Below, in pieces: positions 2,038-5,044 of a stretch of 64,000 nt of DNA. Made by a program: the position numbers and the translations under genes. Numbering within the stretch: the first letter of the stretch is position 1; each line of letters starts with the position of its first letter. The notes beneath the pieces were generated by a model, which worked only from the letters and a program-made list of their open reading frames with translations, had not been told where the DNA came from and searched no databases. Source of the stretch: a virus (Duplodnaviria; Heunggongvirae; Uroviricota; Caudoviricetes); IMG/VR virus record IMGVR_UViG_3300043467_001216; one strand, written 5' to 3'.

Positions 2038-2469
2038 ATGAAAATAATAATAACAGAAAGTCAGTATAAGAAATTTAAACACTTGTTGGAACAAGATGTT
2101 TATGATGATGAAGAGTATAGTAATGCCGGTTACGGTAATGAGGATTACGGTGTTGCCGATAAAGAAGGTATGGTTTTTAAAACTGAAATTGCTGGAATGC
2201 CGTTAAAACTAACTTACTCACATACCACACAAGTTAGTGAGAATGAATTTGAATATTACTGTGAGGTGGTATTTTATGGTGATGAGTTCTTTGGTGTGTT
2301 TGTTGCCGATAAGAGAGGTTATTTAGTAGACATTGATTTCCCTTCTGTAATTTCAGAAAATGATGAGGACGTTAGATTACAAGACGTATTAAAAGAGATG
2401 GGTAGTAAATATTACTATGAATTCGAACATTGGTTAGATAGTGAGGTAATACCTTCATTAATGGATTAA
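2038..2469 (+). CDS. Hypothetical acidic protein (start re-assigned to MKIIITESQ)
   Basis: ATG 2038 follows TATTTAT; the longer ORF-track start overlaps folA. Confidence 0.75.
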   Translation: MKIIITESQYKKFKHLLEQDVYDDEEYSNAGYGNEDYGVADKEGMVFKTEIAGMPLKLTYSHTTQVSENEFEYYCEVVFYGDEFFGVFVADKRGYLVDIDFPSVISENDEDVRLQDVLKEMGSKYYYEFEHWLDSEVIPSLMD

Positions 2470-2473
2470 GTTT

Positions 2474-3385
2474 ATGAGAGAAAAGATTTACAAAATAATT
2501 GAAAAGGTTGGTCCTTTTAAGGCTGCAAAGTATTTTGGTGGTGTTGAAAAGTTTTTGAAGTTGTTAGAAACTATACCAGGGTCAGATAGTATTAAAGAAC
2601 AATTTAAAGGTAGTTGTAGTGTATCATATGCGACATCTGCTAGTCACCCTGATGCGTATTTCGATTTTTACATATTGGATTATGATATTATAGATGATGA
2701 TTTTGTTGAATTAATTGTTGATATGAAAGTTGATTTTAGTAATCTATCAGGTGAAGAGATATATGAATTAAAAAAATGGTTTGGTGCAGTTGCCGATGAC
2801 CACGGATTTGAAATTTATGACGTTGAAAATCTACCATCACATCAAAATCTATATATTAAATCATTCAATGGTAAACCATATACTTGGCCAGGTTATGATG
2901 TTATAGATGATAATGAAGCTTTCGAATTACTTGATAAGACAGGTAAGTGGGAAGGTTTGATTAGAGAAAGTATTCACGTATTCAAAAATCCAAAAACGGA
3001 TGAAGATAGTGGTTACAAAAAAATGGTTGCGGTTATTAAACATTTAGAAAATAAACCCGGAAATCCTTATACCGACTATACCGACTTAAACCCAAGAATG
3101 AAAATTAAATTTCTAGAATCCGATGAATGGGGAATAAAGGTTTATATTGATATTGAATCTATGGGTGAGTCAGATGAAGAATTTGAGGTTTTTACAAATT
3201 ATGGTGATGAAACACGTAGACATATGAGTAATAGAAACCTTATGAAATTCTGGCATGGTTATAAATTAAATGATGATGAAGATGATACTCATCCATCCTT
3301 TAAAACAATAATTTATAATCGTTTAATTAAATTACGAAATAATATAGGTTTGAAATTTAAATTACGTGTATCAATTCTACCTTAA
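2474..3385 (+). CDS. Hypothetical protein
   Basis: 303 aa ORF. Confidence 0.75.
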   Translation: MREKIYKIIEKVGPFKAAKYFGGVEKFLKLLETIPGSDSIKEQFKGSCSVSYATSASHPDAYFDFYILDYDIIDDDFVELIVDMKVDFSNLSGEEIYELKKWFGAVADDHGFEIYDVENLPSHQNLYIKSFNGKPYTWPGYDVIDDNEAFELLDKTGKWEGLIRESIHVFKNPKTDEDSGYKKMVAVIKHLENKPGNPYTDYTDLNPRMKIKFLESDEWGIKVYIDIESMGESDEEFEVFTNYGDETRRHMSNRNLMKFWHGYKLNDDEDDTHPSFKTIIYNRLIKLRNNIGLKFKLRVSILP

Positions 3386-3387
3386 TT

Positions 3388-3810
3388 ATGAAAATATTAA
3401 TAACAGAAAATAAAGTAAAAAACGTCCTTAAACAAACCGGAGTTGGGAAAACTATTAAACTATTAGGTGGTTGGGAAAACTTTTGCGAAGTATTAAATAT
3501 TGAAACATTAATGGACTTCTTACATCTGTTTGATGATTTGGAACAAGTTAAATCTGAAAAAAAAGAAAATTGGACGTTATTTCGTTATAAAAAAGGTGAA
3601 AACTTAATGGTTTACGATAGAAAAAATGAGGTAGTTCATATCAATTATTATGAAATATGGTCATTTTTGGATGATAAATTTGGTCTTAGTTATTATGAGA
3701 CTCAAAGAATTACACAGGATTGGTTGGATGAGGTCTACAATTTAAGGGGGGTCACAACTGATTGGTCTTTTTTCTCCAATGTGTCGAGTTGGATGAGGTC
3801 TACAATTTAA
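3388..3810 (+). CDS. Tandem paralog 1 (MKILITE...MDFLHLFDDL...WLDEVYNLRGVT family)
   Basis: Clear similarity to the next two ORFs. Confidence 0.85.
   Translation: MKILITENKVKNVLKQTGVGKTIKLLGGWENFCEVLNIETLMDFLHLFDDLEQVKSEKKENWTLFRYKKGENLMVYDRKNEVVHINYYEIWSFLDDKFGLSYYETQRITQDWLDEVYNLRGVTTDWSFFSNVSSWMRSTI
3723..3810 (+). repeat. CRISPR-repeat-like 36-nt unit + 29-nt insert + partial repeat within the gene 3' end
   Basis: GTTGGATGAGGTCTACAATTTAAGGGGGGTCACAAC (3723-3758), insert 3759-3787, first 23 nt repeated exactly at 3788-3810. Confidence 0.7.
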
Positions 3811-3819
3811 AATAAGAGT

Positions 3820-4218
3820 ATGAAAATAATAATAACAGAAAATAAATTAGAGAAAGTTCTTAAACAATTAGGAAGTAAAAAAACTGTTCATATGTTAGGC
3901 GGTTGGGATAATTTTTGTGAACTATTTAATATTGAAAGTCCGATGGACTTCTTACATCTATTTGATGACTTAGAACAAGTTCAATCTGAAGAATATAAAA
4001 ATCAAACATTATTTCGTAACAAAAAAGGTTATAATTATATGGTTTACGATAGAAAAAAAAAGGTTGTTTACATCAATGGTGATGAAATATGGTCGTTTTT
4101 GGGAGGGTGGGGATTCCACCTTAACTTTAATGATATTCAATCACTTATAAAGGTGTGGTTGGATGAGGTTTACAATTTAAGGGGGGTTACAATTTTCAAC
4201 CTCTTCACAGTTAGGTGA
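3820..4218 (+). CDS. Tandem paralog 2
   Basis: MKIIITENK...PMDFLHLFDDL...WLDEVYNLRGVT. Confidence 0.85.
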   Translation: MKIIITENKLEKVLKQLGSKKTVHMLGGWDNFCELFNIESPMDFLHLFDDLEQVQSEEYKNQTLFRNKKGYNYMVYDRKKKVVYINGDEIWSFLGGWGFHLNFNDIQSLIKVWLDEVYNLRGVTIFNLFTVR

Positions 4219-4232
4219 GGTCAACAATTTAA
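4158..4232 (+). repeat. Second repeat-insert-partial repeat unit
   Basis: GTTGGATGAGGTTTACAATTTAAGGGGGGTTACAAT (4158-4193), 16-nt insert, GTTAGGTGAGGTCAACAATTTAA (4210-4232). Confidence 0.65.
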
Positions 4233-4241
4233 AATGAAATT

Positions 4242-4664
4242 ATGAAAGTATTAATAACAGAAAATAAATTAGAGAAAGTTCTTAAAAAAAATGGAACTGT
4301 TAAAGTATTTAAACTACTTGGTAATAGTGGTGAGAACTTTCGTAAAGTTTTCAATATAGAAACCCCAATGGATTTCTTACATCTATTTGATGATTTGGAT
4401 GTGGTTCAATCAGAAAAAGATGAGAATTTAACCTTATTTAGATATCAAGAAGGTGATAATTATATGGTATTAGATGAAAGTTTAGAATACAAAAGGATAT
4501 TTGTAAGTTATGCTAATTTAGTTTGGTTTTTAGAAGATACTTTTGAACTTAACTACCCAGGTCAGTGTGGTCAGGCTATTACTCAATGGTTGGAAGAATC
4601 CTATAATATAACTAATGTTACACCTATACTTTACACAACAAGACAAAATTCAAATATTCTATAA
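4242..4664 (+). CDS. Tandem paralog 3 (more diverged)
   Basis: MKVLITENK...PMDFLHLFDDL...WLEESYNITNVT. Confidence 0.85.
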   Translation: MKVLITENKLEKVLKKNGTVKVFKLLGNSGENFRKVFNIETPMDFLHLFDDLDVVQSEKDENLTLFRYQEGDNYMVLDESLEYKRIFVSYANLVWFLEDTFELNYPGQCGQAITQWLEESYNITNVTPILYTTRQNSNIL

Positions 4665-4741
4665 TATTATGGATATAAAAAATTTAACCCCAAATTATTT
4701 TTAGTTTGGGGTTTTTTGATTAATATTGTAAATAAAAACAA

Positions 4742-5044
4742 ATGAATATGAACTATAGAACACATAACGACGAATACATCAATGTTAATGGTGCATCCCA
4801 CAAAGGTGAATTAGTGACAACTTACGATAAATTAGTTGAGTTATTTGGTGAACCCGGTAAAGGAAGTGCTGATGGTAAAACCGATGTTAGTTGGAAAATA
4901 GAATTTGACAACGGTCAGGTTGGTGAAATATACAATTACAAGAACGGTGCTAAATATGGTAACCCAAATATCGAATCCATAACTGAATGGACTATCGGTG
5001 GATACAAGAGTGAAGTTGTTAAATTAATAACTGATTTATTATGA
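4742..5044 (+). CDS. Hypothetical protein
   Basis: 100 aa ORF after a terminator. Confidence 0.8.
   Translation: MNMNYRTHNDEYINVNGASHKGELVTTYDKLVELFGEPGKGSADGKTDVSWKIEFDNGQVGEIYNYKNGAKYGNPNIESITEWTIGGYKSEVVKLITDLL

Follow-up and report, generated by a model that had tools for sequence, protein, structure and literature searches.

In archaeal viruses, CRISPR mini-arrays were reportedly described by Medvedeva et al. in 2019; they are said to hold one or two spacers, to lack cas genes and to rely on the host's Cas proteins, with spacers that target related viruses and repeats that closely match host arrays. Huge phages are known to carry compact cas-less arrays with spacers from host chromosomes (Al-Shayeb et al. 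2020, PMC7162821). In Flavobacterium columnare, the Cas1 of a type II-C system fills type VI-B arrays in trans, and the spacers come from phage as well as host DNA (Hoikkala et al. 2021, PMC8092290). In type VI-B systems, the upstream leader and the first repeat give rise to an extraneous CRISPR RNA (crRNA) that sequesters Cas13b, the binding of which requires the hairpin of the VI-B repeat (PMC13187072), and solitary repeat units are found in the RNA anti-CRISPRs called Racr (PMC10651486). Here, we describe a CRISPR-like arrangement at the ends of three tandem paralogous genes (paralogs 1 to 3, positions 3388 to 4664) in a 64,000-nt stretch, referred to as the window, of the IMG/VR virus record IMGVR_UViG_3300043467_001216. 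The whole record (G000) has 126,190 nt, and the window is taken from its minus strand; coordinates given without a locus name are those of the window, and all the features that they denote are on its plus strand.

We conclude, with a probability of roughly three in four, that these gene ends are cas-less mini-arrays of the CRISPR type, produced by a writing mechanism of the Cas1-Cas2 type. Judging from the sequence, the last 12 conserved codons of paralog 1 appear to double as a 36-nt type VI-B-like repeat, GTTGGATGAGGTCTACAATTTAAGGGGGGTCACAAC (3723 to 3758), which encodes (W)LDEVYNLRGVT and differs from the family consensus at 2 positions. This repeat is followed by a 29-nt spacer (3759 to 3787) that matches a bacterial chromosome and by a truncated terminal repeat (3788 to 3810), an exact copy of the first 23 nt of the repeat, which carries the stop codon of the gene. 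Paralog 2 has the same layout, with a repeat at 4158 to 4193 (3 mismatches to the repeat of paralog 1, 1 of them within the first 23 nt), a 16-nt spacer remnant at 4194 to 4209 and a degenerate terminal repeat with 3 mismatches at 4210 to 4232. The 23-mer GTTGGATGAGGTCTACAATTTAA is found exactly at 3723 and 3788, with 1 mismatch at 4158 and with 3 mismatches at 4210; these 4 matches in the window compare with 0.00 expected (100 shuffles). In each pair, the first copy encodes (W)LDEVYNL; the second lies out of frame, 65 nt (paralog 1) or 52 nt (paralog 2) further on, and ends 9-12 nt upstream of the next start codon.

An initial annotation, made from the sequence alone, had given this geometry for paralog 1 (36-mer, 29-nt insert and exact 23-nt copy) and for paralog 2 (unit, 16-nt insert and degenerate copy), and both layouts were confirmed. 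It had also described a decayed version in paralog 3. The unit is indeed seen there (4589 to 4624), with 6 mismatches in the first 23 nt, loss of the AAGGGG motif and no spacer turnover; the remnant proposed near 4656, a possible fossil terminal repeat at 4645 to 4669, is weak (15/25 identity to the paralog 3 unit, shuffle p ~0.1). The array is intact in paralog 1 and in decay in paralog 2, and paralog 3 retains a fixed fossil. It should be noted that the window alone has one full and one truncated repeat in each of paralogs 1 and 2, that the unit truly repeated inside it is 23-25 nt long, and that the 36-nt extent is confirmed only by related phages, which have full second repeats.

We compared 80 related viral loci (L-numbers designate loci and G-numbers genomes). 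In contigs of related phages, this gene end (WLDEVYNLRGVT) serves as the first 36-nt repeat of genuine repeat-spacer arrays, for which the family consensus repeat, also 36 nt, is GTTGGATGAGGTCTACAATTTAAGGGGAGTCACACC. These arrays contain up to 6 repeats with a period of 64-69 nt, and their 61 distinct spacers are 28-33 nt long (mode 29-31); the insert lengths thus cluster near 30 nt, which the initial annotation had proposed as a test. Among 41 non-redundant arrays, 25 hold a single spacer and 31 end, as in the window, in a terminal repeat cut to its first 23 nt. A full repeat follows 41/72 spacers, and in 21/41 arrays, as well as in the window, no spacer has a full repeat after it. The loci thus display the regular direct repeats and unique spacers of similar length that characterize CRISPR arrays. 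A non-coding AT-rich leader, also typical of such arrays, was not found at these loci: what lies upstream, together with the first repeat, is the conserved 3' coding end of a gene of 140 aa. Where a repeat varies, as with GTTGTCTAGTG... in L047 and L043, its own downstream copies vary with it, a pattern that duplication of the repeat at integration and subsequent repeat-repeat recombination would yield.

Two further repeat-bearing sequences were observed. The first, in G000 (G000:C1:114215-115537, minus strand, ~20.8 to 19.5 kb before the window start), is a 440-aa open reading frame (ORF) containing ~16 units of 66 nt, each composed of a 36-nt repeat, GGTGGAAGATACCCTAAATTGTAAGGTAGACACAAC, which encodes VEDTLNCKVD(S/T)T, and of 30 variable nt. 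Its 66-nt period and open frame were confirmed, with every unit in frame and no stops, and its repeat is related to the window repeat and resembles VI-B repeats at 21-23/36 positions. The second, L086 (CAZSZH010000129.1), is a 1.8-kb contig of phage sequence binned in an uncultured Flavobacterium metagenome-assembled genome (MAG). It bears a two-spacer array together with one structural and one family gene; its presence in the MAG seems to be an artefact of binning, or at best a faint pointer to the host.

Spacer content was found to turn over at the gene-proximal end of the arrays. Over 6.4 kb, L007 and L010 share 99.47% identity, with 100% in the upstream 1 kb; their arrays differ only in the gene-proximal spacer 1, which is unrelated between the two (31 vs 33 nt), and spacers 2-5 are common to both. 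The same pattern, a different spacer 1 followed by common later spacers, separates L007 from L012 and L029 from L044. This polarised turnover at the leader end, with duplication of the adjacent repeat, is that of CRISPR arrays. The window locus itself has four syntenic orthologues (L121, L122, L123 and L124), in which the upstream sequence (273-290/300), the repeat (33-36/36) and the terminal repeat (22-23/23) match the window. Their paralog 1 inserts are 29-31 nt long and match the window spacer at 5-9/29 positions, which is chance level. The downstream 100 nt are identical in L121 and L122 (100/100) and match at 67-69/100 positions in L123 and L124, which have a different neighbour gene. Inserts that vary between conserved flanks, one of the outcomes envisaged in the initial annotation, are thus seen in the four orthologues. 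At paralog 2, L121 has a full 30-nt spacer in place of the 16-nt remnant, and L122 has the same remnant as the window. Paralog 3 serves as an internal control: the intact repeat has been lost, its tail is fixed (identical in three orthologues save 2 nt), and no turnover is observed.

L124 has no paralog 2. In this locus (L124:2821-2930, compared with window 3723-4241), the paralog 1 array joins directly the terminal repeat and the sequence found downstream of paralog 2, which suggests that paralog 2 may have been deleted by recombination between repeats.

The spacers originate from other DNA, as do those of CRISPR arrays: the search for protospacers proposed in the initial annotation yielded six, including one for the window insert, all within ordinary bacterial genes. 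The window spacer (28/29, antisense) matches a 690-aa ORF of a Bacteroidota MAG contig, located next to valS, hemB and a thiolase gene; by chance, the scanned collection should contain ~2e-5 exact matches of 28 nt. This spacer is a piece of a bacterial chromosome, presumably that of the host. The five other mapped spacers correspond to housekeeping genes of lake Bacteroidota. Spacer 1 of L036 matches an ABC-F ATPase gene in three Lake Mendota Crocinitomicaceae MAGs (29/29, sense), and spacer 1 of L035 matches hemE in metagenome contigs (28/29, antisense). Spacers 1, 3 and 5 of L007 match, all in sense orientation and each in a Crocinitomicaceae genome, a glutamine cyclotransferase gene (29/31), a photolyase-related gene (28/32) and purC (29/31), respectively. 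The spacers have a G+C content of 36%, compared with 30% in the phage and 33-37% at the donor loci. The core idea of the initial annotation, a CRISPR-repeat-like unit associated with a spacer-sized foreign insert, holds.

Other searches with these spacers gave few matches. Exact scans of viral contigs with the window spacer, L007 spacer 1 and L026 spacer 3 returned self matches only or none. No match was obtained for L007 spacer 1 in a metagenome scan, for the L121 paralog 1 spacer in a genome scan, or for two arrays searched by blastn against cultured phages, and nothing significant was found when the L121 arrays were searched by blastn against five candidate host MAGs. The spacers of the type II-C array of G404 had no match in the phage sequences examined. 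The phage spacers did not match the phages' own genomes, save for a partial match of L026 spacer 3 to a 789-aa ORF of G002 (G002:19913-19943), which is perfect over 20/20 positions and then diverges (23/31), in frame and with TNYQLD conserved. From this alignment, L026 spacer 3 may be derived from a homologous gene of another phage.

We then compared the repeat with three Flavobacteriales VI-B repeats: those of L100 (Flavobacterium) and G473 (Crocinitomicaceae), both located beside cas13b, and that of G067, a 17-repeat Flavobacterium array on a contig without a cas13b ORF in the 6 kb examined. The window repeat matches the three in register at 20-22/36 positions (shuffle p<5e-5), including 22/36 with the Crocinitomicaceae repeat, and its interior (positions 5-32) gives p values of 0.004-0.03. 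Across all comparisons made with VI-B repeats located beside cas13b or in arrays of the VI-B type, the phage repeat agrees in register at 19-22/36 positions (shuffle p<5e-5; 0.0015-0.03 for the interior). The 36-mer, which the initial annotation had likened to known CRISPR repeats, is thus significantly similar to genuine type VI-B repeats, in addition to sharing their 36-nt length, GTTG...CAAC ends and ~30-nt spacers. Similarity to a 36-nt type II-C repeat was not significant. The 47-nt II-C repeat of G404 was also considered and rejected; aligned by eye, it matched at 21/36 positions with an 11-nt gap. Rfam CRISPR-DR models matched neither the window nor the related arrays, and genuine host VI-B arrays, used as positive controls, were also unmatched. 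Several codons of the repeat are rare in this genome, namely, GTC (4.8%, present twice), AGG (7%), GGG (12.5%), TTG (13.6%) and GAG (19.5%), which points to selection on the nucleotide sequence of the repeat and thus to a probable nucleotide-level constraint. A solitary full repeat was also observed in a Crocinitomicaceae VI-B locus (L138:7692-7727), 125 nt after cas13b and 119 nt before an 11-repeat array.

The initial annotation had reported no cas gene in the window, and this extends to the entire 126-kb record: neither Cas1 (PF01867) nor Cas13b (NF038190) was detected in G000 or in its complete 296-kb relative G002, so that neither genome has, adjacent to the arrays or elsewhere, the cas1 or cas13b gene of a CRISPR-Cas locus. 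The longest ORF in G000 does not exceed 683 aa. Eight G002 ORFs of 850-1107 aa were scanned, of which six encode portal, tail sheath, DNA polymerase B, leucine-rich repeat or similar proteins and two have no Pfam match. As the phage has no Cas enzymes, Cas1-Cas2 must be supplied by the host. The array structure, the polarity of turnover, the duplication of the repeat and the foreign 28-33-nt inserts together constitute the signature of Cas1-Cas2-type integration, and we infer Cas1-Cas2 to be the writer of these arrays, with Cas13b as their putative user. One spacer-donor MAG, from the same sample as G002, encodes cas9-cas1-cas2 with a 24-repeat array of 47-nt repeats. Its locus (L130:381-7786) comprises a compact cas9 (966 aa), a 110-aa gene that is PemK-like by eye only, cas1, cas2 and the array, which has spacers of 29-30 nt and a terminal repeat truncated after 31 nt, like the phage terminal repeats.

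The archaeal-virus mini-arrays share with the window locus the small size and the absence of cas genes, but the six mapped spacers here are all bacterial chromosomal, and a related phage is matched only weakly and partially by one spacer. As in huge-phage arrays (PMC7162821), short arrays without adaptation or interference genes are carried by a giant phage, the repeat resembles CRISPR repeats of the host lineage, and the spacers match bacterial chromosomes from the same samples. Unlike in huge-phage arrays, the leader position and the first repeat are protein-coding, being the conserved C-terminus of a multi-copy family; at least 8 sites are scattered in a genome, where usually a single spacer precedes a truncated terminal repeat; and the likeness of the repeat to known host repeats is only ~60%. 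In common with VI-B arrays filled in trans (PMC8092290), the arrays have a 36-nt repeat with GTTG...CACAAC ends and a TTT-AAGGG core, ~30-nt spacers drawn from either strand and including host chromosome, acquisition at the transcription-start end, and no cas1 or cas2 at the locus. They differ from these in belonging to a phage without cas13b, in having coding sequence in place of the AT-rich leader, in a family consensus that ends in CACACC, not CACAAC, and in the loss of most of the inner hairpin, of which 3/5 stem pairs are kept in register, as read from the folds. By analogy with Racr and extraneous crRNA (PMC10651486, PMC13187072), a viral copy of the repeat without a useful guide could occupy the effector. 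Unlike Racr, the repeat lies inside the coding region of an mRNA and not in a small non-coding RNA, and it is accompanied by real spacers that turn over.

Several observations weigh against reading these gene ends as VI-B-like mini-arrays. The repeat folds no better than its shuffles (-5.0 kcal/mol and z -0.45 for the window repeat; -2.1 kcal/mol and z +1.75 for the consensus), compared with -9.5 and -11.8 kcal/mol (z -1.6 and -3.4) for host VI-B repeats, and most of the canonical Cas13b hairpin is lost. Cas13b was found in 0/5 protospacer-donor genomes and in 1/151 Crocinitomicaceae genomes, which is weak evidence as these are MAGs, and Cas1 in 1/4 donor genomes tested; CRISPR loci are frequently missing from MAGs. 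The core of the phage repeat was absent from all prokaryote genomes in the collection, the one match being a phage-like contig binned in a MAG. The protospacers are 4 sense and 2 antisense, with no sign of RNA-targeting selection, and the protospacer adjacent motif (PAM) that the initial annotation had proposed to look for beside them was neither evident nor derivable from the six. In addition, the motif W-L-x-E-x-Y-N-L is retained in array-less paralogs, and the repeat could therefore stem from coding sequence and not from a captured array. Any Cas13b-based role has to face two real objections, namely, the weak hairpin and the absence of Cas13b from the donor MAGs.

With these objections in mind, we propose the following scenario for mini-arrays written by Cas1-Cas2. 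Host Cas1-Cas2, of type II-C as in Flavobacterium columnare, would integrate fragments of host DNA at the gene-repeat junction in the course of infection, and repeat-repeat recombination would then trim the array back to one unit; paralog 2 would represent a decaying copy and paralog 3 a fossil. Each transcript would present a Cas13b-type repeat preceded by harmless coding sequence. The spacer would be a by-product, and so would its translation into a short disordered tail. In the VI-B guide-repeat layout, a single spacer could not mature because the repeat that follows it is truncated. This truncation after most single spacers, together with the unselected look of the spacers, favours a role for the repeat itself. 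Our leading but tentative suggestion is that it may act, by analogy, as a decoy similar to extraneous crRNA or Racr, and possibly also as a sink for the host integrase. It is doubtful, but conceivable, that the conserved ~125-aa domain and the repeat encoded with it form a phage-specific module that offers many leader-repeat look-alikes to the CRISPR machinery of the host. Such a module might be a two-layer RNA/DNA anti-CRISPR: integrations by Cas1-Cas2 would be absorbed, hence the host spacers, and Cas13b would be swamped by transcripts resembling extraneous crRNA. Alternatively, the integrase might be recruited by the domain, in which case phage genes would be deliberately rewritten with host DNA. 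The initial annotation had offered either a mini-array or decoy or the diversification of protein tails, and the former fits the data better, without being proven.

Working guide arrays, with which the phage would use host Cas13b or another host effector against host genes or competitors, a use suggested for the cas-less arrays of huge phages, seem unlikely to us. The six spacers that could be mapped all match chromosomal genes of bacteria in lake samples, and for two of them the match is in a MAG from the lake that also yielded the phage contigs; published huge phages have compact cas-less arrays whose repeats are host-like and whose spacers derive from host chromosomes (PMC7162821); the 41/72 spacers with a full repeat after them would also be compatible with this use. 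However, the window and 21/41 arrays lack, after every spacer, the full repeat needed for a VI-B guide-repeat crRNA (PMC13187072), and the ratio of 4 sense to 2 antisense protospacers shows no bias to mRNA targeting. The ~60% likeness of the repeat to host repeats and its weak hairpin also argue against guide function, and a collateral RNase triggered by host transcripts would harm the phage too.

We consider it about as improbable that the arrays are a neutral by-product, that is, that host Cas1-Cas2 integrates ectopically at a gene end resembling a leader and repeat, with no benefit to the phage. The spacers do look like an unselected sample of host DNA, with housekeeping genes, both strands and no PAM seen, and the arrays stay tiny, many of them decaying like those of paralogs 2 and 3. 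Against this stand the conservation of the repeat at synonymous sites and its rare codons, though gene bodies have diverged to 45-60% identity, the arrays on 8/16 paralogs of the complete relative in a family of more than 1000 members, and the second gene in G000 with a 16-unit array of a related repeat.

It is very improbable that insertion is under selection for the new C-terminal peptide that it provides to each gene copy, as the initial annotation had considered. All inserts are translated, tails differ among orthologues, the 16-unit array elsewhere in G000 is in frame and stop-free, and one subfamily has a conserved tail, RIYANGxxVIGxIE. Nevertheless, the period of the first unit modulo 3 is distributed 19:15:7 in the 41 arrays, with the in-frame class the rarest, and translation of the tails ends either within the spacer or at one of two stops, both out of frame, that form part of the next repeat. 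Their sequence, only 5-20 residues long, is in effect random, and disorder is predicted for the tail (predicted local distance difference test, pLDDT, <50). Finally, a simple duplication of the gene terminus, with later divergence or gene conversion of the ordinary kind and without any CRISPR-type process, would fit the 23-nt direct repeat that is all the window alone shows, and distant members with an in-frame second W-x-[DE]-[VI] motif ~20 residues downstream, but it is hardly credible given the wholesale replacement of spacers between genomes that are 96-100% identical in the flanks, the matches of spacers to bacterial chromosomes and the multi-repeat arrays with full 36-nt repeats in related phages.

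Three other candidates were rejected. In the case of a diversity-generating retroelement, the differences between copies are not adenine-specific, and no reverse transcriptase was seen, although no search was aimed at one. A target-site duplication left by a transposon would be shorter than 23 nt and would flank a longer insert. Bypass by the ribosome, from copy one to copy two, would not need such a degree of identity, and its product would merely be shortened.

The source of the window is an uncultured giant lake phage. G000 has an estimated completeness of 42% (CheckV) and a G+C content of 30.7%, and its relative G002 encodes T4-like structural genes. A T4-like portal protein of this relative (L112:2873-5965; G002:162873-165968) was observed to contain an intein splicing domain (PF14890, E 2.4e-16). 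DNA of the locus had no match in cultured phages.

Paralog 1 (3388 to 3810, 140 aa) occupies the leader position of its mini-array, and its last 29 codons consist of the repeat, the spacer and the terminal repeat. Paralog 2 (3820 to 4218, 132 aa) and paralog 3 (4242 to 4664, 140 aa), the latter with the fossil repeat and fixed tail, follow. A terminator-like hairpin at 4686 to 4713 closes the three-gene block; as it is the sole terminator-like site in 2400-4800, the three paralogs are, judging by this arrangement, probably co-transcribed on one polycistronic mRNA. Their gene neighbours are a dihydrofolate reductase (DHFR), a thymidylate synthase and an endonuclease, which does not support the label of late genes used in the initial annotation. 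In the orthologues, the gene order is DHFR, a 143/144-aa gene, a 303-aa gene, the family paralogs, small genes and the endonuclease, with three family paralogs in most of them. Thymidylate synthase comes next in the window and L122, and the downstream genes of L121 differ.

None of the three paralogs has a match in Pfam or PHROGs, and the family has 1430 metagenomic homologues. Two further paralogs lie ~10 kb upstream of the window, one of which has the same repeat pair with a spacing of 56 nt, and G002 has 16 family genes, 8/16 ending in repeat-spacer arrays. In an AlphaFold2 model of paralog 1 (pLDDT 86, predicted template modelling score 0.80), a predicted helix at residues 102-117 spans WLDEVYNL and is followed by a short strand, and residues 130-140, the part encoded by the spacer and terminal repeat, are predicted to be disordered. 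Searches for fold relatives of the family protein gave nothing interpretable (best E 0.3 with Foldseek against the PDB; best Z 3.6 with VIA-align wide).

Ten genes of different families in G000 have near-identical first 21-30 nt (ATGAAAATAATAATAACAGAA..., MKIIITE[N/E]), starting at 2038, 3388, 3820 and 4242 in the window and at six sites upstream of it. This common start region may be a shared module that could promote gene shuffling. The 23-mer was also considered as a promoter or start-site element of the downstream gene, which was rejected, since other genes with the MKIIITE start have no 23-mer upstream.

Three features of these mini-arrays are new: conserved coding sequence makes up both the first repeat and the leader position, the arrays are found dispersed with a multi-copy gene family, and most arrays hold one spacer that could not mature in the VI-B guide-repeat configuration. 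The locus represents CRISPR-type spacer capture on a cas-less virus genome and within protein-coding sequence, where the repeat doubles as the conserved C-terminus of the proteins of a family of more than 1000 genes, and it indicates that adaptation machinery can alter open reading frames. It offers a natural system in which to test in-trans adaptation at foreign repeats by type II-C Cas1-Cas2, and it is a candidate new decoy form of anti-CRISPR. For uncultured giant lake phages, the spacers provide direct virus-host links, as each is a piece of bacterial chromosome.

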